Assembly: GCA_048939465.1 (NCBI GenBank)
Contig: JBHLPL010000034.1
Location: 1-17,866 of the forward strand
Length of the DNA: 17,866 bases
Source of the DNA: Promethearchaeota archaeon
Lineage (GTDB): Archaea > Asgardarchaeota > Odinarchaeia > Odinarchaeales > JBHLKK01
Direction: 5' to 3'
Part shown: positions 1,399 to 17,632 of the stretch, piece by piece
Position numbering within the stretch: the first letter of the stretch is position 1
Layout of the letters: each line of letters begins with the position of its first letter
The notes under the pieces: generated by a model
Told to the model about the DNA's origin: nothing
The model's database searches: none
What the model saw: the letters and a program-made list of their open reading frames with translations, nothing else
Translations under genes and position numbers: made by a program

Positions 1399-3255
1399 AT
1401 GAAGAAGACAGACTACACTCTGTTTGATAAGAAAACCCAAGCATTTATCTACAGCCTCCAAGCTAATGCAATTCAACGCATGCTGGATTTTGACTATATC
1501 TGCAAAAGAGAGACGCCCAGTGTTGCTGCAGTTGTCGATCCTTTCAGACCGGGGCTGCAGAAGGTATTTTGGGGAAGCAAAGAGATCCTGATACCAGTCT
1601 ATGCTACCATAAAAGAGGCCGTAAGGAACCATCCAGACGTTGATGTAATGATCAATTTTGCGTCTTTTAGGTCAGCATATCCTACAACCTATGAGGCACT
1701 AAACGAGAATACTATCAGAGTCATTGTAATCATTGCCGAGGGCATTCCTGAGGCAAAAACAAAGAAGCTGATCGCCATAGCAAAGAAGAACAATAAGATC
1801 ATTATCGGACCATCAACAGTTGGAGGGTTGGTTGCCGGAGGATTCAGGATCGGCAACACCGCAGGAGCTATTGGAAATATCGTTGCTGCTAAATTATATA
1901 GGCCGGGTTCAGTAGGCGTTGTTTCAAAGTCGGGTGGGCTTCTAAACGAGATTTTCAACATGGTTGCATTAAACTCAAATGGGGTTTTTGAAGGAGTGGC
2001 AATAGGTGGAGACAGATATCCCGGCTCCACACTCCTCGACCATATAACAAGATATGAAGCAAACCCTAAAATAAAAATGATAGTTGCTCTCGGCGAGGTC
2101 GGGGGTACAGACGAATACCAAATAGTGGAGGCGCTGAAGCATGGAAAGATTACCAAACAACTTGTCATGTGGGTAATCGGGACGGCCGCAACAGTTTTTC
2201 CAACTGGAGTTCAATTTGGACATGCGGGTGCAATGGCTGAAAGCAGTCTAGAAAATGCTGACGTAAAAAACCGGGCTTTAAGAGAAGCAGGCGCAATCGT
2301 TCCAGATTCATTTGACGACTTCGGAGAGAAAATCCATCAGGTGTACGAAGGGCTGAAGGCAAAAGGTGAGATTCCTGAAATAGAAGAATTTGATGTTCCT
2401 CAGATTCCGATGCCTTATCAAGTAGCCTTATCGAAAGGCATCATAAGAAAACCTGCGAACTTCGTTACCACAATATCGGATGATCGAGGAGAAGAACCCA
2501 CGTACGCAGGAATACCGATAAGCGAGATCATTGAAGAGGACTATTCCATCGGAGATATAATAGGCTTGCTTTGGTTTAGAAAGAAGTTGCCGAAGTTTGC
2601 AACAGGATTCATCGAGATGGTACTGAAAATTGTTGCAGATCATGGACCAGCTGTATCAGGGGCACATAACGCCATTGTTGCTGCTAGAGCCGGCAAAGAC
2701 CTTATCTCTGCACTCTGCAGCGGTCTATTAACAATCGGTCCGCGATTTGGCGGAGCGATCGATGGCGCTGCACGTTATTTCAGTCAAGCGAAGGATTCGG
2801 GTATGAAACCTGCAGACTTCGTAGATGATATGAAGGCTAAAGGAATTTACATTCCAGGAATCGGTCACAGGATAAAAAGCGTGGAGAATCCTGACAGGCG
2901 TGTGGAATTGCTTAAAGATTTTGCGCGCAGAAATTTCCCGAAAACTGACTATCTAGATTATGCTCTTGAAGTCGAGAAGATAACGACCCAAAAAAGAAAC
3001 ACATTAATCCTAAATGTTGACGGGTGCGTGGGCATTCTATTCTTGGATATGCTAAAGGGGACGACTATGTTCACAGATGATGAGATAAGAGAAATGATTG
3101 AGATTGGATACCTCAACACCATGTTTGTGTTAGGAAGAAGCATTGGGATTATTGGGCATATTCTCGATCAAAAACGTCTCAAGGCTGGCTTGTACAGACA
3201 TCCGTGGGATGACATACTCTATTATGTGGAGAGAGGAGAGACTGGTGAGAAGTAA
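1399..3255 (+). CDS. aclA: ATP citrate lyase alpha subunit (CoA-binding/ligase domain with phospho-His, plus C-terminal citryl-CoA lyase module)
   Basis: NFASFRSA, IIGPSTVGG, GDRYPGS, phospho-His motif QFGHAGA, DHGPAVSGAHN, IGPRFGGA, PGIGHRIKS, LNVDG, LYRHPWDDI. Starts 6 nt after aclB. Confidence 0.93.
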   Translation: MKKTDYTLFDKKTQAFIYSLQANAIQRMLDFDYICKRETPSVAAVVDPFRPGLQKVFWGSKEILIPVYATIKEAVRNHPDVDVMINFASFRSAYPTTYEALNENTIRVIVIIAEGIPEAKTKKLIAIAKKNNKIIIGPSTVGGLVAGGFRIGNTAGAIGNIVAAKLYRPGSVGVVSKSGGLLNEIFNMVALNSNGVFEGVAIGGDRYPGSTLLDHITRYEANPKIKMIVALGEVGGTDEYQIVEALKHGKITKQLVMWVIGTAATVFPTGVQFGHAGAMAESSLENADVKNRALREAGAIVPDSFDDFGEKIHQVYEGLKAKGEIPEIEEFDVPQIPMPYQVALSKGIIRKPANFVTTISDDRGEEPTYAGIPISEIIEEDYSIGDIIGLLWFRKKLPKFATGFIEMVLKIVADHGPAVSGAHNAIVAARAGKDLISALCSGLLTIGPRFGGAIDGAARYFSQAKDSGMKPADFVDDMKAKGIYIPGIGHRIKSVENPDRRVELLKDFARRNFPKTDYLDYALEVEKITTQKRNTLILNVDGCVGILFLDMLKGTTMFTDDEIREMIEIGYLNTMFVLGRSIGIIGHILDQKRLKAGLYRHPWDDILYYVERGETGEK

Positions 3256-3549
3256 ACTACTCCTCCCTTGCAGAAGGAGCTTATGACTATGCTTGACCGC
3301 AATTCCCTTGGGGGCTTTGGCTTCATCACACGTCAAATCAGGGGGCAGTTTACAGCGCCCCAGCCAAGTAATCCGCATTTAGCGTCGGGCTATATGATTT
3401 GTCCCATCCATCCCCCACAGGTCATTAACCGTTTCCACATCGGAGAGAGGTGTGCCTTTAGACCTACTGGAATACTCATCCCAGAAGTATTTAAGGACCG
3501 CTCGATCCCTCTCCGTCCTTTCGGACGGAGTCTCCTTGAGGTGGTTTAG
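3252..3549 (-). mobile_element. Non-autonomous IS200/IS605-like element (PATE/MITE type), no transposase or tnpB ORF
   Basis: Two related 20-nt hairpins in the same orientation on the minus strand: CTCCGTCC-GAAA-GGACGGAG (3530-3511) and CTCCTTCT-GCAA-GGGAGGAG (3279-3260), 15/20 identical. The right end reads AAGCTCC...GGAG-TAGT-TTAC, like tnpB-element right ends. The left hairpin starts 19 nt after TCAT. Deleting 3252-3549 gives GAG AAA TGA overlapping the icd ATG. Confidence 0.68.
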
Positions 3550-4788
3550 ATGAATAAGAAATTGCAGCACCTAGAATCTCCGACTGAGGGAGAATGTATC
3601 AGAGTCATTGATAGCAAACTGCAGGTACCGGCCAATCCCATCATTTCGTTTATTGAGGGAGATGGCGTAGGTCCGGATATCACCAAGGCTATGCTGCCGG
3701 TCGTGAATGCTGCGGTCGAAAAAGCATATTACGGACGCAGAGAAATATCTTGGTACGAGATATTTGCAGGCCAGAAAGCCAAAGCCCTGTACGGGGAGTA
3801 TCTTCCTGAAGAAACTCTCGATGCAATTCGGAAATATGTTATAGCAATAAAGGGACCCCTAACAACGCCAGTCGGAGGAGGATATAGGAGCCTTAACGTA
3901 ACTATCAGACAGAAACTCGATTTATACGCGTGTGTGAGACCAGTAAGAGGCATAAGGGGAGTACCTGCACCAATTAAGAGACCAGAGCTAGTAGACATGG
4001 TAGTTTTTCGGGAAAATATTGAAGATGTCTACGCAGGTATTGAATGGGCATCAAATACACCTGAAAGTCGCAAGTTTATCGACTTCCTTAGGAATGAGAT
4101 GGGGGTGTCAATTCCCTTAGATTCAGGAATTGGAGTCAAGCCAATCAGTAAGACCAGAACCTACAATATTGTACGGAAATCAATCAATTATGCAATCGAA
4201 AATAACAGGAAAAGCGTTACGATAATGCACAAAGGCAATATTATGAAGTTCACCGAGGGAGCCTTTAGAGAGTGGGGATACGAAGTTGCAAATAACGAGT
4301 TTGGAGATTATATAGTAACAGAGGAGCAACTGAGGAGCGGTGAATTGCCTGAGGGCAAAGTTGTTATTAAAGATAGGATTGCAGATGCGATGTTTCAGCA
4401 GGTACTACTCAGGCCTAAAGAATACGATGTCATAGTTACGTCAAATCTAAACGGTGATTATATATCGGACGCGTTGGCTGCCCAAGTCGGTGGATTGGGA
4501 ATGGCACCTGGAGGAAACATCGGCGACTACCTTGCTGTTTTTGAGGCTACACATGGGACTGCACCAAAATACGCAGGACTAGACAAAGTGAATCCAGGAT
4601 CACTGATTCTCTCGGCAGTTATGATGCTCCGTTATATCGGATGGAATGAGGCAGGGGATCTAATCGAGAAAGCTCTTGAGAAAACCATACTGCAAAAGAG
4701 GGTAACCTACGATCTTGAACGGCAAATGGAGAATGCAACGCTTCTGAAGACATCAGAATTCGCCAAAGCTGTCGTTGAAAATCTATAA
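3550..4788 (+). CDS. icd: Isocitrate dehydrogenase, NADP-dependent, dimeric prokaryotic type
   Basis: [70 protein letters not shown] and VTYDLER carry the Lys/Tyr/Tyr/Arg residues associated with NADP specificity. SD GAGGTG at 3538-3543. Confidence 0.95.
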
Positions 4789-7671: not shown

Positions 7672-8973
7672 TTGATACTCGGGCGATGGACTAAACCATT
7701 CATTTTGGCTTTAATCCTGATTTCTATGCTTAGTGTCATTCCCGTATCAAAACAGCAAAACCAATGGAGTACGCCCGTAAGAATCGTATCCGGCTCTAGC
7801 CGAAGTATATCCTTAGACAGAGCAATCTGTGTCGATTCTCTAGATAACGTTCATATTGTGTGCTTCGATGCGAGCAACGGTGCTATCCTATATGTATATA
7901 ACAACTCAGGAAGTTTTGCGAACATAGAAGTTGGTACAGGCATCTTCCCGGCCATCGCTATAGACTCCTCCAACAAAATTCATATCACATATGCTGGACT
8001 TGACGGTAGCCCTGATAATGACTTCGAAATCTTTTATACCAATAACACAAATGGATCGTTTCCAATACCGGAAAACCTAACAGAGAATAGCATCATAGAT
8101 GCTCTCCCGGATATTGCAATAGATACCTCAGACATCATTCATCTAGTCTATGAAGCCAATGTAACCAAAGTCGGAATCTTCTATTTGAATAGCAGTGGTG
8201 GCTTTTCAGGAATTCCAATAAGAATTACAAACGAAAGTTATCAGGAGGAATTAATGCCAACAATAGCCGTAAATTCATCACTTGTCTACGTAGTGTACTC
8301 AGGAAACATGACCTCCAATGCAACTGATGTTCTTCACGCAAACAGCTCAGCAGGTTTCTTCCCTAACTCGACTAGAATAGACAGTCCCACTGAAATCAGC
8401 GCCATACCATCAATAGCCATTGATTCCACGGGGGTAATACACCTGGTCTACGAGGGGGTTGGGAGCGACACCAACTATATTCTCTATGTTAACAACAGCG
8501 AAGGTTTCTTTGGAGTACCGACGGTCGTGGTAAGTGGCGATGTTGGCTCACCATCTATCGCAACTGATTCTCTAGGTGGCGTCCATATCGCTTATGTTGG
8601 GTGGGACGGAGAGGATTTTGAGATCTACTATGTGAATGGGACCTCTGGTTCCTTCGGAACACCAACGGCAATAACAGACAACATAGGCGAGCAGGATCTA
8701 CATCCGTCGATTATTGTAGACTTGGCCGGTTATATCCACATTGTTTATGTAAAGGGAGTGTTTATACAGGTGGTAGGAGCCGTTCGGGGGGAGGTATTTT
8801 ACGTAACAACTTCGCCATACCCCCCAAAAGGAATAGCAGAGGGGTTTCCGCTTATAACAATCCTGATGATAACGGTGATCGTTGTGATTATTGTGGCGGG
8901 GGTAGTATTGACTCTGTGGAAACGGAGGCCGAAAGAAGAAGCTCTACTCGGAGGATGGACCAAGAAGGACTAG
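7672..8973 (+). CDS. Secreted, C-terminally membrane-anchored repeat glycoprotein (probable 7-bladed beta-propeller)
   Basis: N-terminal signal-like segment; seven repeats of P-x-I-A-I-D-S-x-G-x-I-H-[IL]-V-Y...Y-x-N-x-S-G-x-F; C-terminal TM helix followed by KRR. TTG start with GGAGGGAAG upstream. Confidence 0.75.
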   Translation: MILGRWTKPFILALILISMLSVIPVSKQQNQWSTPVRIVSGSSRSISLDRAICVDSLDNVHIVCFDASNGAILYVYNNSGSFANIEVGTGIFPAIAIDSSNKIHITYAGLDGSPDNDFEIFYTNNTNGSFPIPENLTENSIIDALPDIAIDTSDIIHLVYEANVTKVGIFYLNSSGGFSGIPIRITNESYQEELMPTIAVNSSLVYVVYSGNMTSNATDVLHANSSAGFFPNSTRIDSPTEISAIPSIAIDSTGVIHLVYEGVGSDTNYILYVNNSEGFFGVPTVVVSGDVGSPSIATDSLGGVHIAYVGWDGEDFEIYYVNGTSGSFGTPTAITDNIGEQDLHPSIIVDLAGYIHIVYVKGVFIQVVGAVRGEVFYVTTSPYPPKGIAEGFPLITILMITVIVVIIVAGVVLTLWKRRPKEEALLGGWTKKD

Positions 8974-9543: not shown

Positions 9544-10395
9544 TCAATGAGTGGGACTCTTCCTCAATACCTTTTCGGCTTCATGAAAGATTTTTTCAAT
9601 CTTGCTGTTTGAAAGCCCTGTTAATTGCGCTAACTCTTCCGTATCTTGTTCTAATAGATCACATAGAAACATTATCCCTAAATCTGAGAGGTGCCTTATA
9701 ACGGCCTTATCTATCGTTCTCAAAACCGTTACTGGATATAGGTTTTTCCGCTCGATTATGTCTCTGATACTGCCGTTATTTGGATAATTCCAGCAAATCA
9801 ACTTAATTCCCCGACATTTAGCGTACTTTTTCACGGCTTGCGAGGCTTTCGCGTTGCTTACAAACCAAACATTGTCAAGCTGCCTGCCTTTGCCCTTTTC
9901 CCAACCCTCCATCAGATCAAGAAAACGGGCATAGGTGAATAACATCTCTTTTAGTTCTATATGCTGCCCTTTCGTATTCCGATATTTGCATTCTATCATT
10001 GAGTGAATCTCTTCACCTTCTGAAGCTTTAACTGCAACCACATCAATCTCATGCTCCACGCATAGGCCTCTTACATTTTGTCGTAATTCGATCTTATAGT
10101 CGTATTTTTTGAGAAGCTCTCCAATGAAGGTTTCAAAAGGGTATCCGGTAGGTCCGAGACGCATAATGGCCTGTTTTAGACCATAACGACAAGCAGAATA
10201 GTGATCTCTCTTAGCCATTAGTTTGCAAGCCATATCCATAATTTTGTCTGTAGTTATCCCATCGTACATCTTCTTGGAGATGCTGTCCACTATTTCATCT
10301 GCCAGTCTCTTGGAGGCTCCTGCGCGCAACAGAGTTCTACGGATCTTGTTAGGTTGAAACTCTTCCATTTTCCCTGAGGCTTTTCTAACCAACAT
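9544..10395 (-). CDS. ATP-cone domain fused to Mrr-like PD-(D/E)XK endonuclease domain, with C-terminal HhH-like helix pair
   Basis: N-terminal LVRKASGKMEEFQPNKIRRTL (ATP-cone); PFETFIGELL...HEIDVVA...IECKY (nuclease motifs). ATG at 10395 preceded by GAGGA is preferred over the ORF-track start at 10440. Confidence 0.78.
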   Translation of the reverse strand: MLVRKASGKMEEFQPNKIRRTLLRAGASKRLADEIVDSISKKMYDGITTDKIMDMACKLMAKRDHYSACRYGLKQAIMRLGPTGYPFETFIGELLKKYDYKIELRQNVRGLCVEHEIDVVAVKASEGEEIHSMIECKYRNTKGQHIELKEMLFTYARFLDLMEGWEKGKGRQLDNVWFVSNAKASQAVKKYAKCRGIKLICWNYPNNGSIRDIIERKNLYPVTVLRTIDKAVIRHLSDLGIMFLCDLLEQDTEELAQLTGLSNSKIEKIFHEAEKVLRKSPTH

Positions 10396-10525
10396 CTTGA
10401 TTCCTCGAAAGCTAGAATCTTTTGGATTCTGTCGGCACAAAGGAGAGTAGCCTGTATAATTCTTATTATTGCCCCTAAAAAAGTCTTTACAGTAAGAGTC
10501 TTAGAGAATTTTACTAATTAGAAAA

Positions 10526-11152: not shown

Positions 11153-14100
11153 ATGGCTAGGGCAATTGATAGATGGGAATTGATGACAACTTTCTTTGAA
11201 GAAAAAGGATTAGTAAGACAGCATCTTGATTCGTATAACTCCTTCATTAAAGAAGGACTCCAGCAGATTGTAGAAGAAGTTGGTAGAATTGAGCCAGATA
11301 TTGAAGGATTTTGTGTCGAATTTGGCAAGATTAGAGTAGAGGAGCCAAATGTTACCGAGGCCGATGGTTCAGTTAAGAAAGTAAGCCCAAGTGAGGCGCG
11401 TATCCGCAATCTGACATACTCGGCACCGATATACTTGGAAATGACTCCGGTACTCCAAGATTCAGAGACGGGTATTGAAGAACGTGGAGAAACAATCGAC
11501 ATCTACATCGGCAGAATACCTATTATGCTTAAATCGGAAAGATGCGGACTCGCTCACTTAAGTCCGGAGAATCTTGTAAAGGTTAACGAAGACCCGAGGG
11601 ATCCGGGCGGCTATTTCATAGTCAACGGATCAGAACGAGTACTGGTTACTCAAGAGGATCTGGCGCCCAACAGAATCTTAACTGAAGAAGCAGGAAGCAG
11701 TAGTTCCGCAACTCACGTAGCAAAGGTATTCTCGACAGCTCGCGGCTTCAGGGCTCCTGTAACACTGGAAAGAACCAAAGACAATGAATTAAGGGTTTCC
11801 TTCCCGTCGATACCGGGAAAAATCCCCTTGATAATTCTTGTGCGGGCCTTAGGACTTATCACAGACAAGGAGGTCATCGAGACTTTCTCTGAAGATTTTG
11901 AGATTCGGCGTGAGCTCATCCCTACCCTTGAGGCAGCGGCACCCATATACGTCCCTAAGGATCGAGAGGAAACAAGGAGAAATGCCCTAGACTATATCGG
12001 CAGAAGGGTTGCCATCGGTCAAACCATCGAATATCGGTTAAGACGCGCAGAACAGGTTTTAGATCGCTATCTTCTTCCCCACATAGGTATGAGGCAAGAA
12101 GATCGAATTAGGAAGGCATATTATCTTACGCAAATGGCTCAAAGGCTTATTGAACTAATTTTGGGAAAAAGAGCCAAGGACGATAAAGATCATTATTCAA
12201 ATAAAAGACTGAAGCTCGCAGGTGAGCTTCTAACAAGTCTGTTTCGGGTTGCATTTTTGAATCTTGTTAGAGACGTCAAATATCAGCTTGAACGAACTGC
12301 TGTTAGAGGTCGCAAGCCCAACATTCGTACGGCTGTACGAGCGGATGTGATAACAGAACGACTTAAACATGCATTAGCTACAGGGAACTGGGTCGGTGGA
12401 AAAGCAGGCGTAAGTCAGCTACTTGACAGAACAAACTATATATCAACGTTGAGCCATCTGAGAAGAATTGTTTCTCCTCTTAGCAGAAGTCAGCCTCATT
12501 TCGAGGCACGTGACCTTCATCCCACGCACTGGGGCCGGATATGTGTTGCTCCTTCAACCTTGGTAACGATGGCAGATAAGGTGACTCAAACTCCAATATC
12601 TGATTTAGAACAGAACTACTCGGAAAAGACGGTTGCAACGGTGAATCTGGCAGACTTCCGGATAGTTCCGTCAACACTACACGATTATCAGAAATTCTCA
12701 CCAATTAAGCTAAATAAGAGAGTTTACAGGATAACAACAATTAGCGGAAGAACCATTGAGGCAACAGCAGATCATCCATTCTTCACACTTAGAGGATGGG
12801 TTTCTGGAAAAGATCTTAATGTTAATGATAAAGTCTTGGTATTCCCAGGCATCGAGCCGATCGAGATTGAACCCATATTGGAGTCTCAGGGTGAAATCCT
12901 ATCGGAAAAGGAATTCCTTGAAGGTGAGTGGATAACCAAGCTAACAAGCTCGGAGAGAAAGCGATTAGCAGGATACGCTGAAGAATTAAAAGAAAAGGGG
13001 CTTCTGCCGCTCAAAAATACCAACCCCAAGTTGCCCATTGTCGCAAGATTGTTCGGATATATCATTACAGACGGCTCTGTTGGCAAGACAGTCGAGTTCT
13101 ACTGTGGCTGTAGAGAGGATGTTAAAGACATCCAAACAGATCTCCTAGAGCTGGGCTTCAAACCCACAAGCATTAGCACAAAAATCGGGACCTTTCCGGT
13201 TGATGGAGAAGAATTGACTTATACTACAGAAAGAACCACAAAGGGAGGTTCTTTCCTATCCCTCATGCTGGCCTTGGGCTGTCCGAGAGGGAAAAGAGTG
13301 TCACAGCCGTCGGTTTTTCCAAAATGGGTTCCTAATTCAAGCCTTCTAGTTCAGCGAGAGTTCCTTGCGGGCTATCTTGGCGGTGATGGTTCAGCACCTC
13401 GATTCTACAGAAGATCTGAAGAGGATAGAAAAGATAGCTATAAGATCAAGCTGGATAGAATCGCAGGTCACAAGGAGAAAGAGTTCGCATCAACCTTGAG
13501 AGAATTCTTTGAAAAGATGCGGAATTCGTTTAGAAATTTCAACATTAAAACACTTGGGATCGGATCTAAATCCTTAGACGACGAGAAGATTCAGGTTGGT
13601 CTTCAGTTTTCCCAAGAGCATTCTAACATTGTGAAAATCGCTAAGTTGATCGGATTCAGGTACTGTAAAGAAAAGCAAAGCAAAGCGGCGTTGGTTCAAG
13701 AGTATTTGAACTACAAAGAATGGGAGATTTCAATTAGGTCGAAATATGTCCAAGAAGCAATCACGCTATTCAAGAATGGGGTGACAAAACGAGAGATTGC
13801 TAAGCATCTCTCACTAAAGTTCAACAGAAACATCACCCACAGAGCTATTGATGGACTTTTGCTGCGAATTGATGAGCGTAAGAAGCTTGTAATGCCTAAA
13901 TCTTCCATGAATATCAACGACTTCCTCCTAGAAACTTGTGCAGACTTCGATAATGGATTCTTATATTTGCCTATCGATAGAATCGAGGAATCGCGCCTGG
14001 AAGATGTAAGGGATTTCACCACCGTTTCAAAGAATCATAACTTCATTGCAAACGGATTCTTAACACACAATTGTCCCAATGAGACCCCTGAGGGGCCCAA

Positions 14101-17100
14101 CTGTGTTGTGCCCAACACCAGGGTTACCATCTCCGGAGGTAGTACGTATCAAATCGGAGACTTAGAAAAGGATGGAAAGTGGCGGCGCATTAGGTTGATG
14201 TCTTCAACTTGGAATGTGCCAAATAATCATCAAACAGACGCTATCTATCCAACAGTGGCGAGATTCATAAAAAACAAGGCTAACGGACGCCCATTTAAGC
14301 TCTATAACATCAAGACAGATACTGGTCGCACAATATCAGCGACAGCAGACCACCCATTCTATACCGACCAGGGTCGACTGGAAGCTAAGAGACTTACACA
14401 TGGAACGAAAGCTGCCGTATTGCCTGCAGCGCTTCAGCGACCTGACTGGGGGTCGGAGGTCGGTGGTAATGATATTATCATAAGCGAAAAAGGAATTATT
14501 GAGGCTTGCCCACCGCACTCCAAAGTCCAGCTTCACTGTAACTTCCTGAAGAAGCTGGGATTGATCCCCCTCAGGAGAAGCGATCCACGTTATAGAATTC
14601 TGCTTCGTCTTTTGGCCTTCCTTTATGGTGATGGGCACTTATCTTTTAGGATCCGTGAGGGCAGGTCTGGTAAGCCCAAATCGGATGTTTCAGTTCATTT
14701 TGTCGGTCAAGTAGAAGACCTGAAAGATATTCAGACTGATATTGCCATGCTTGGCTTCCGAAGTTCCAAGATATACACTTCAAAGGCCGAATCTGTCCTT
14801 CCAGACAGAATAATTAAAGGCAAGACTTCCAAGATTGTATGTTACCAAAAACCCTTCTGGGTCCTTATGAAGGGGCTTGGTGCTCCTGTTGGAGATAAGC
14901 AAAAGCAAGATTTCTCCGTCCCCGAATGGCTTTTTAATGCATCCGGAGCGGAGATTAGAGAGTTTTTGGCTGCGTTTTTTGGATGTGAAATGCTTAAGCC
15001 GCTAGTTGACAAGAGAACAGGAAAGGTCTTTGTCCCTCCTTCCATCAAGATGTCAAAGGAAATCTCCATGATTGAGTCACTCCGAGAATTCTTTATGGAC
15101 ATAAAGAGACTGGCCGAACGTTTTGATATCCAGTTTCCTGAAAAAGTTATCACTCCTAAAGAAAAATTCGTACGTAAGGATGGGACAGTTACGCAAAAAC
15201 TTCAATTGAACTTCTCGGGCTCAGTTGAAAACCTAGCCAAGCTATGGGGAAAGATTGGCTATACCTATAACAGAGAACGGGAATGTCTCGCTCAACGTGC
15301 TTATGGCTATCTACATAGGCATTTGATGGCTCGTTCTAAACGACAAGAAGCTGCAAGGTATGTTATGGGAAGAAGACGGGTGCTAGATGGAACTCCAACT
15401 GAAAAAGCGAGAATCATTATGAAGGAACTTAAAGATCTAGGACTACTTCAATTTGTTCGTCTTCACGATATCGTCAACTGGATAAAGACTCGTATAGAGC
15501 CCTCCTCAGCTCGTGTATCAGAGATAGATTCTCCATCATTTGATGAATGGGTAGCTCAAGCTGCGATGAATCTAGAAGGTGATGCTGGTCTAATCTGGGA
15601 GACTGTAGAAACTGTTAATATTAAGATTACCGAACCCTCTCAGATTGTTGAAGATGTGACCATGGCGGACAGAAATCATAACTTCTTTGTCAACGGTTTT
15701 CTAACCGGAAACTGTGGTCTCGTCAAGAATCTTGCCCTGATGGCCTACATCTCCGTCGGGACGGATGAGGGGGTTGTCGAAAATGTCCTGTTAAATCTCG
15801 GGGTTTATCCTGCAGAGGAGGTTATTAAAGACAAAACGAAGAGAGGAGCTCAAGTATTTCTGAACGGGAGGCTTGTCGGCGTTCATCCTAAGGCAAAGGA
15901 ACTCGTCACAAAATTGAGAGCGATACGTAGAAAGGGGGAAATTGACGACGAGGTCAACGCAGCATATGACGCTGAAACCAACGAAGTTCAGATCAACTGT
16001 GACTCGGGAAGAGCCAGAAGACCTCTGATAATCGTAGAGGATGGCGTGCCTAAAATCAAGCCAGAGCAAATAGAGCAGTTGAGAAATAGGGAGATAGTGT
16101 TCAGTGACCTAGTGGCAAAAGGAATCGTGGAATATCTAGATTCAGAAGAGGAAGAGAACTCGTTTATTGCGCTTGACCCCAAGGATTTGACCCCTGAGCA
16201 CACACATCTCGAAATAGCGCCTTCCGCGATACTTGGCATAACAGCATCAACGACACCCTTCCCTGAATATAACCAGTCTCCCCGTAATGTTTACCAAGCA
16301 GGAATGAGCAAGCAAGCCCTCGGAATCTATGCCACGAACTATCGACACAGAGTCGATACAAGAAGCCATCTCCTTCATTATCCTCAAAGACCGATTGTAG
16401 AGACTGAGGCAATGGACGCTGTAGGTTTTGCCAGCAGACCAGCTGGCCAGAATCTGATTGTGGCTGTCCTCAGCTTCCAAGGATACAACCTGGAAGATGC
16501 TCTAGTTATTAACAAGGCATCAATAGAACGAGGCGTTGGGAGAGGAACCTTTTTCAGATCATACGAGGCAGAAGAAAGGAAGTACCCTGGGGGTCAGGAG
16601 GATAGATTCGAAATTCCGGAAAAAAGTGTTCGTGGGTATCGTATAGCCGAAGCCTATCGCCACCTGTCTGAGGATGGTATCATTGAGCCCGAAATGGAAG
16701 TAACAGGTGGTGATGTGTTGATAGGACGATCAAGCCCTCCGAGGTTTCTTGAAGAGTATTCCGAATTTGAAGCCATCTCGCCGATAAGGCGCGAGACCTC
16801 GATAAACATGAGACATGGCGAAAGGGGTGTGGTCGATACTGTTATACTTTCTGAAACGATGGACGGGAGTAAGTTAATCAAGATTAAAGTTAGGGATCAA
16901 CGGATACCTGAACTCGGAGACAAGTTTGCGTCCAGACATGGCCAAAAAGGAGTTATTGGTTTAATAGTTCCACAGGAAGATATGCCTTTTACAGGAGAGG
17001 GGATAGTACCAGATCTCATAGTAAACCCGCACGCAATACCGTCCCGTATGACGGTTGGACAGATAATGGAGGGGTTGGCAGGAAAGGTTGGTGCCCTCAG

Positions 17101-17632
17101 AGGAGATGTAGAAGGAATTAACGGCAACGCGTTTAGCGGGGAAAAAGGAGAAGTCCTTTTTAAGATGCTCAAAGAATTGGGCTTTAAGCCCACTGGACGC
17201 GAAGTAATGTACGATGGAATGACTGGCAGAAAATACATCGTAGACGTTTTTATGGCTGTCGTATACTACCAGAAACTGCACCACATGGTTGCAGATAAGA
17301 TGCACGCCCGTGCTCGCGGTCCTGTACAGATATTGACCAGACAACCGACGGAGGGTAGAGCAAGAGAAGGTGGACTACGCTTCGGTGAAATGGAACGGGA
17401 CTGTCTAATAGGGCACGGTGCAGCATTGGTCTTGAAAGAACGGTTACTTGATGAATCGGATAAATACAATATGCTGATCTGCGAAAACTGTGGCACCATT
17501 GGTGTCTATGACAGGAATAAAGACAGATACTATTGTCCTATTTGTGGAGATAAGGGGAAGGTCTCACAGGTTTCAGTTTCTTATGCCTTCAAACTTTTGC
17601 TCCAAGAACTCATGTCTTTCGATTTCCCCTGA
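11153..17632 (+). CDS. rpoB: DNA-directed RNA polymerase subunit B (unsplit) precursor with two inteins; about 1112 aa after splicing; last few codons probably non-native
   Basis: [44 protein letters not shown]|[10 protein letters not shown]|[48 protein letters not shown], zinc site CENC...[17 protein letters not shown]. Confidence 0.97.
12542..14071 (+). mobile_element. Intein 1 in RpoB (510 aa, residues 464-973) with LAGLIDADG homing endonuclease
   Basis: Begins CVAPST; block B ATADHPF; LAGLIDADG-like [11 protein letters not shown] and [12 protein letters not shown]; ends [12 protein letters not shown], +1 residue Cys. Confidence 0.93.
14102..15712 (+). mobile_element. Intein 2 in RpoB (537 aa, residues 984-1520) with LAGLIDADG homing endonuclease
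   Basis: Begins CVVPNT; block B ATADHPF; [11 protein letters not shown] and [10 protein letters not shown]; ends [12 protein letters not shown], +1 residue Cys. Confidence 0.92.

Follow-up and report, generated by a model that had tools for sequence, protein, structure and literature searches.

The window analysed here is a stretch of 17,866 nucleotides from a Promethearchaeota archaeon (contig JBHLPL010000034.1 of assembly GCA_048939465.1), and our subject is the spacer of 294 bp which separates the genes aclA and icd in it. In our numbering the window is contig C66 of genome G000, an assembly of 1.96 Mb in 152 contigs with 43% G+C, and two congener genomes, G001 and G002, were compared with it. 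The spacer is not unique. According to BLAST and an nhmmer profile it belongs to a dispersed repeat of about 300 bp in G000. We regard it as very probable that positions 3252 to 3549 are a palindrome-associated transposable element (PATE), that is a protein-less derivative of a tnpB-only IS200/IS605 insertion sequence (IS) of the IS1341 type, which has kept a promoter box and an omegaRNA scaffold. This is the best explanation for the data described below. An earlier note on the same DNA had proposed an orphan TnpB omegaRNA at this place, with a guide directed against the element-free aclA/icd junction, and the orphan omegaRNA reading gains support from homology to the ends of a parent element as well as from a covariance model.

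The repeat family, its insertion site and its parent element

At least 18 full-length copies of the repeat, with identities of 68-87%, are present in G000. When the copies were aligned together with their unrelated flanks, the similarity set in sharply at GTAAAC (position 3252) and ended at ...GGTGGTTTAG (position 3549). Beyond 3549 most of the copies continue with ATGAA, and the match to the nhmmer profile extends from 3252 to 3554. The element thus delimited is 298 bp long and is read from the minus strand. Its ends, GTAAAC... and ...TTTAG, do not form terminal inverted repeats. Subterminal hairpins are found on both sides. The hairpin of the left end (LE), CTCCGTCC-loop-GGACGGAG, occupies 3511-3530 on the minus strand, 19 nt from the LE boundary, and is homologous to the LE hairpins of IS copies on contigs C70, C2 and C105. 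The hairpin of the right end (RE), which lies at 3260-3280 on the minus strand and is helix 9 of the fold discussed below, is part of the family consensus and is followed by the 8-nt cleavage end TAGTTTAC at 3259-3252. All three IS types of G000 end at the RE in the same hairpin and TAGTT(T/C)AC, including the tnpA-carrying IS on C105, whose matching RE hairpin is followed by TAGTTCAC. No transposase or nuclease gene is encoded within the 298 bp; the sole open frame is not conserved among the copies and has no Pfam match.

The comparison of the three species defines the insertion site. In G000 and G001 a member of the family occupies the aclA/icd junction at one and the same bond, without target duplication, whereas the junction of G002 is empty. 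There the sequence runs uninterrupted as ...GATGAGTG and, directly after the bond, ATGAATAAG..., the part before the bond ending with ...GAGTG, and the TGA of aclA overlaps the ATG of icd. The empty allele of this congener thus shows the flank directly behind TCAT, as the earlier note had expected. On the top strand of the transposon the element sits directly 3' of TTCAT, and the insertion is precise. This target, which is placed like a TAM (transposon-adjacent motif), lies outside the element at 3550-3554 on the minus strand, adjoins the LE and is still present where G002 lacks the element; its plus-strand reading is ATGAA, i.e. the start codon of icd and two further nucleotides. Among the family members of G000, 10 of 19 have TTCAT next to the LE and the others a T-Y-R-T-like tetramer, and the copies of G001 and G002 follow the same target pattern. 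Precise and duplication-free insertion 3' of a short target and subterminal hairpins are defining properties of IS200/IS605 elements and of PATEs.

A parent of the family could be identified in G000. It is split by an assembly break within tnpB (C70:1-1005 and C55:5721-6043, with an exact overlap of 77 nt). Joined, the two pieces give a tnpB-only element of 1251 bp which encodes a TnpB of 381 aa and is the sole intact TnpB element of the family. Positions 1-144 of the nhmmer profile match C55:5721-5871, which comprises the last ~130 nt of tnpB and a 17-nt tail ending with TAGTTTAC, while the counterpart of positions 229-305 is C70:927-1005, which immediately precedes the start of tnpB. In the window these terminal ~150 nt of the parent align to 3252-3400 on the minus strand and its left end to about 3473-3549. 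Because both ends match the parent IS, the minus strand of the window is the top strand of the transposon, with the LE at 3549 and the RE at 3252. The genomic tnpB with a homologous right end, which the note had named as a test of its reading, is thus this C70/C55 element.

The TnpB of the parent contains the Pfam domains OrfB_IS605 and TNB and the motifs GVDLG, IEDL, two CxxC pairs and NSDLNGARNI. By way of a homologue with 67-71% identity these motifs can be placed on the catalytic region in structures solved for TnpB/Cas12f. The protein is a candidate nuclease partner, which appears to be catalytically intact by its D-E-D motifs. Eight matches to the TNB domain (PF07282) were found in G000: three are intact TnpBs, one is a Zn-ribbon protein without relation to them, and the others are short remnants. 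All three full TnpBs carry Pfam domains of the nuclease region (OrfB_IS605, TNB). The genome has one Y1 tnpA gene, on C105, and the insertion sites of the family are polymorphic among the congeners.

Further traces of the family were seen in G000. Two mini forms of about 109 bp (C84:8667-8775 and C41:8641-8752), in which the first ~58 nt are joined to the last ~51 nt, resemble the terminal-only PATEs of Haloquadratum. On C139 (2700-5576) three members, one partial and two full, lie within 3 kb and each of them is directly followed by a long open reading frame (ORF). A left-end-like motif of about 40-75 nt, consisting of the hairpin and GAGGTGG, occurs at about 45 sites (e.g. C2:25980-26044 and C138:78769-78810). 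This solitary motif is far commoner than the full element, and one of the sites, on C2, is located upstream of a second, different tnpB, which suggests that other IS or PATE families share the left end of the element in the window. Solitary right-end-like fragments with the hairpin and TAGTTTAC are located at C105:~1000-1045, directly upstream of the tnpA-tnpB element of that contig, and at C59:~1585-1615, directly upstream of a full gene-less copy; they may be nested or tandem insertions. No tRNA was found by ARAGORN next to the copy on C118.

The guide-RNA scaffold and its proposed use

OmegaRNAs are encoded by the 3' end of tnpB together with the RE, on the strand of tnpB. A homologue of such a scaffold is located at 3252-3411 on the minus strand of the window, as indicated by the DNA alignment to the parent IS and by a covariance model. 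This model, R1, was built from nine tnpB-linked 3' ends only, eight from Hermod- and Borrarchaeota and one from the IS of G000 itself, and includes no gene-less copy. In the window it gives a single match (3411-3252, minus strand), which spans the entire model (positions 1-169 of 169) and scores 108.7 bits at an E-value of 4.4e-30. Together with the number of full copies in the genome, this goes far beyond what chance would produce. In the whole genome of G000 it detects 20 loci, of which one lies beside the intact tnpB, one beside a decayed tnpB on C5, and 18 are gene-less. The copy in the window ranks fourth among the 20 by R1 score and keeps every helix. Next to the deletion junction, at 3420-3467 on the minus strand, the gene-less family has a conserved block which would form the 5' part of the putative RNA with helices 1 and 2, and whose homology to the part of tnpB that codes for the Zn-finger is weak. 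The column identity along the family alignment is uneven, with 0.8-0.9 in this block and the other internal scaffold blocks versus 0.4-0.6 in a hypervariable patch.

When 30 gene-less copies from the three species and the nine tnpB-linked ends were folded separately with RNAalifold, the same helix set was obtained for both. It includes a long-range closing helix, in which an AAAC motif pairs with the terminal GTTT, the pairings AGCCC/GGGCT and CGC/GCG, a GGGN/NCCC stem, a long interrupted stem which encloses a variable hairpin, and the RE hairpin. Covariation is modest overall and strong in two helices. One of them is helix 6, the GGG stem, in which 5 of the 6 pairs have changed in a compensatory manner across the 30 gene-less copies and which reads GGGCTT/AAGCCC in the parent IS and GGGGCG/TGCCCC in the window. 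The other is the variable hairpin, which covaries freely among the tnpB-linked sequences despite its position inside the tnpB reading frame. In the gene-less set 17 pairs with double changes were counted versus 10.6 expected, and the consensus fold of the top strand is better than that of the bottom strand. Where a copy deviates from a Watson-Crick consensus pair, G-U is more frequent than A-C (114 vs 81).

The sequence features listed in the earlier note are all present where it had placed them, namely the AT box TTAAATAC at 3494-3487, the flank TTCTCACCAGTCTCTCCTCT at 3251-3232, and the hairpin at 3260-3280 with the terminal TAGTTTAC behind it. Two of its proposed stems recur in the family: GGGGCG/TGCCCC is the helix 6 just described, and TAGGTC/GACCTG corresponds to helix 1, in which 88% of the cells are paired and three pairs show double changes. 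A third one, TTGGC/GCCAA, appears in neither consensus fold; TTGGC pairs with an upstream AGCC to form helix 4. The covarying structure related to TnpB omegaRNAs, on which the note had made its reading depend, is supported by the full-length R1 match and by the recurrence of the helices, with some covariation, in both sets. LNAD (3382-3371), which had been mentioned as a weak remnant of the RuvC-III motif, is shifted by one base against the frame of the TnpB homology, in which the parent has ...QRYTRI..., and is therefore a coincidence. The position of the true motif is 20-45 nt further upstream, in the diverged part of the element.

The TATA-like box TTAAATAC (3487-3494, minus strand) is homologous to a box in front of tnpB, which in the parent and in all Borrarchaeota IS copies reads TTAAATA or TTTAAATA and precedes the ATG by about 29 nt. 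Such a spacing implies a leaderless tnpB mRNA, and because of it the start of the RNA in the window is predicted near 3466-3462, at the first conserved block. At its other end the RNA would run into the flank immediately 3' of the RE boundary. The 20-mer TTCTCACCAGTCTCTCCTCT found there (3232-3251, minus strand) can be read as a putative guide and runs antisense to the final codons of aclA. It occurs only once in G000, where no second target was found with up to three mismatches. In the filled state the match to the guide is preceded by GTTTAC, which is not a TAM.

From these data the following course of events may be proposed. An internal deletion took out about 950 bp, nearly all of tnpB, and so joined the left end and the TATA-like box in it to the terminal ~210 nt of the element, the part which in the parent codes for the omegaRNA scaffold and contains the right end. 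The shortened element inserted 3' of TTCAT, ahead of the ATGAA of icd, and thereby split the overlapping stop and start codons of aclA and icd. The box in the left end could now drive a minus-strand RNA with a scaffold of about 214 nt, which passes through the RE at 3252 into aclA, so that the bases from 3251 to about 3232 would become the guide, and this RNA could be loaded onto the C70/C55 TnpB. As in the homing model of Meers et al., only the scarless donor joint of TTCAT and guide would be recognised, and it would be formed when the single Y1 transposase, encoded on C105, excises the element. TnpB would then cut the empty joint, and recombination with a filled sister copy would restore the element.

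Several points weigh against a PATE with an omegaRNA scaffold of this kind. Primary sequence accounts for much of the R1 score, and G000 itself contributed one of the nine sequences used for training. Covariation in the gene-less set is modest, with 89.2% of the cells paired versus 87.9% in shuffled alignments, and the excess of G-U over A-C deviations is weak. A cmscan of positions 2800-4000 against Rfam at E ≤10 returned only chance matches outside the element. The box TTAAATAC could also fire toward icd, as judged from its purine-rich upstream flank on the plus strand. Finally, identity between this scaffold and the one in the single intact cognate TnpB element amounts to only about 68-70%, and the loading of TnpB in trans is therefore not assured.

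The element may instead be an inert relic, that is a PATE with a leftover omegaRNA-like interior which is untranscribed or unbound and which persists by TnpA copying under slow decay. We take this as a serious, if doubtful, possibility. The copies differ by 13-30%, a tree of the 30 copies is star-like, and several copies reach R1 scores of 28-60 bits only; the modest covariation in the gene-less set and the diverged scaffold of the sole cognate TnpB would fit as well. Slow decay does not easily explain, however, why the scaffold blocks are so much better conserved than the hypervariable patch and why the copy in the window has retained all helices and one of the highest scores. It also has to account for the same-site copies of G000 and G001, which are about 87% identical (86.4-86.6%, and 89% in the scaffold part), whereas the third codon positions of the flanking aclA and icd are 63-64% identical. 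Two same-site pairs between G001 and G002 are 78% and 85% identical versus 69-74% at these codon positions. The closest paralogue of the window copy, on C61, is likewise 86.5% identical to it, equal to the copy in G001. Because of this similarity and of the star-like tree, an old insertion under constraint and independent recent insertions are inseparable, and for the same reasons a proven orthology of the copies in G000 and G001 was not upheld.

Consequences for aclA and icd

On the plus strand both ends of the element take part in the expression signals of the neighbouring genes. The ORF of aclA (1399-3255, plus strand, assigned by Pfam) ends with a TAA at 3253-3255 which is supplied by the RE. 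The complement of the LE contains GAGGTGG (3538-3544, plus strand), a Shine-Dalgarno-like sequence which is visible in the family alignment and is placed 5 nt before the ATG of icd (3550-4788, Pfam). Since the ends of the element supply these two signals, the insertion is tolerated on the plus strand. Compared with G002, the ribosome-binding region that icd had originally now lies 298 bp further away from it. Similar arrangements are found elsewhere in the genome: in at least 12 of the 19 members a long downstream ORF begins at the LE side or within 4 nt of it, and in 7 of the 19 a long upstream ORF terminates within the first codons of the element. TTCAT is the complement of ATGAA, and such docking therefore fits the choice of the target as well as the survival of insertions which do not break genes. 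Docking at ATGA(A) junctions with replacement of the translation signals helps to explain how the element spread in a compact genome.

From the same features one could conclude that the element has been domesticated as an operon spacer, whose plus strand provides the aclA stop codon, the ribosome-binding site of icd and maybe an internal promoter, so that the scaffold would be irrelevant. The location of both signals inside the element, the displaced icd region, the orientation of the members docked at start codons, the upstream stop codons in seven of them and the filled site in two species would all be in agreement with that. Nevertheless we consider it unlikely, as G002 works without the element and as the best-conserved blocks are internal and do not coincide with the plus-strand signals. 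Moreover, the end features are common to all copies and are therefore properties of the transposon that ease harmless insertion, and not an adaptation of this locus.

A more far-reaching idea connects the two strands. RNA-guided homing might keep the family in the genome, with a single TnpB acting in trans and the flanks of each copy serving as guides, and evolution might have made the ends silent at ATGA(A) junctions, where they supply a stop codon and a ribosome-binding site. The pattern at the aclA/icd junction would then reflect long-term guided retention or recurrent re-occupation of a permissive site and not chance. We offer this as a speculation with a rather low probability.

Regulatory use of the minus-strand RNA, either as an antisense RNA to the aclA 3' end or as a guide which directs a nuclease-dead TnpB (TldR-like) onto the operon, is highly improbable. 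The geometry would allow it, since any read-through RNA is antisense to aclA, but no TnpB with an inactivated RuvC site, i.e. no partner of the TldR type, is among the eight PF07282 matches of G000, and the guide match of the filled state lacks a TAM. The suggestion in the note that an inactive TnpB could act on the acl-icd operon thus found no support. A small protein gene, translationally coupled to icd, can practically be dismissed: the 88-codon frame on the plus strand (ATG at ~3283 to TAG at 3547-3549) is open in the window copy, with an AAGGAG Shine-Dalgarno sequence and its TAG directly before the ATG of icd, but in most of the 18 copies its halves are in different frames or interrupted by stops, its substitutions have no third-position bias, and it has no Pfam match.

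The acl-icd spacer is hence a mobile element and should be annotated as such, and neither as a small gene nor as a regulatory region. The remaining part of the window encodes aclB (109-1392, Pfam) upstream of aclA. Further downstream there is an ORF of 433 aa without Pfam match (7672-8973, plus strand), followed by a protein of 298 aa (9544-10440, minus strand) in which an ATP-cone occurs together with an Mrr-type restriction-endonuclease domain and a C-terminal domain of the AF1548-like kind. The rpoB gene (11153-17632, plus strand) encodes an RNA polymerase subunit B of 2159 aa with Rpb2 domains 1-7, into which about 1000 aa are inserted. Two stretches of this insert match Intein_splicing and there is also a LAGLIDADG-like match, so that rpoB probably carries one or two inteins.

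Comparison with known gene-less IS605-type elements

PATEs were defined in Haloquadratum walsbyi as IS605-derived, protein-less elements, some of which keep C-terminal coding remnants. They have no terminal inverted repeats, carry palindromes near their termini, cause no target duplication and are preceded by a 5' targeting oligonucleotide of 4-5 nt (Dyall-Smith et al. 2011, PMC3119063). All of these traits are seen in the element of the window, which is likewise too short to encode a protein. It differs from the Haloquadratum PATEs by its Asgard host, by the target TTCAT, and by the retention of a promoter box and of the complete scaffold region. Unlike them, the family also prefers ATGA(A) start/stop junctions.

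According to Meers et al. (10.1101/2023.03.14.532601), PATEs "often encode omegaRNAs" which have to be used in trans by the TnpB of other elements, and in their homing model the flank 3' of the RE serves as guide, while the target of TnpA beside the LE serves as TAM. As far as its sequence permits a judgement, the element in the window appears to possess every testable defining feature of these descriptions and of the PATEs. The finding leaves the present picture of TnpB biology unchanged. With about 18 cassettes of promoter and omegaRNA and a single cognate TnpB, the genome offers a natural experiment on whether many guides encoded in trans can be served by one TnpB.

The closest relatives with a nuclease gene are the tnpB-only IS of Hermod- and Borrarchaeota and the C70/C55 element, all of which belong to the IS1341 group. 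With the window element they share the hairpin at the LE, the TATA-like box, the helices of the omegaRNA and the TAGTTTAC at the RE. The Hermod- and Borrarchaeota IS encode TnpBs of 380-390 aa and have the TAM TTCAC, whereas the element in the window has no tnpB and is preceded by TTCAT. In the copies L063-L070 of these IS the tnpB stop codon TGA is located inside the right-end hairpin. A genome labelled as belonging to the phylum of the host, G026, shows no difference from a Candidatus Hermodarchaeota MAG at the TnpB locus, which places the host among the Asgard archaea.

Gene-less IS605 elements which encode omegaRNAs used in trans are already in the literature, and the present one adds an archaeal, more precisely Asgard, example to them. 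The PATE-like gene-less IS elements of Geobacillus stearothermophilus studied by Meers et al. are bacterial and experimentally tested, while the element described here is known from sequence alone and resides in an archaeal host. In contrast to the Geobacillus system, the tnpB mRNA of this family appears to be leaderless and to be transcribed from a TATA-box promoter.

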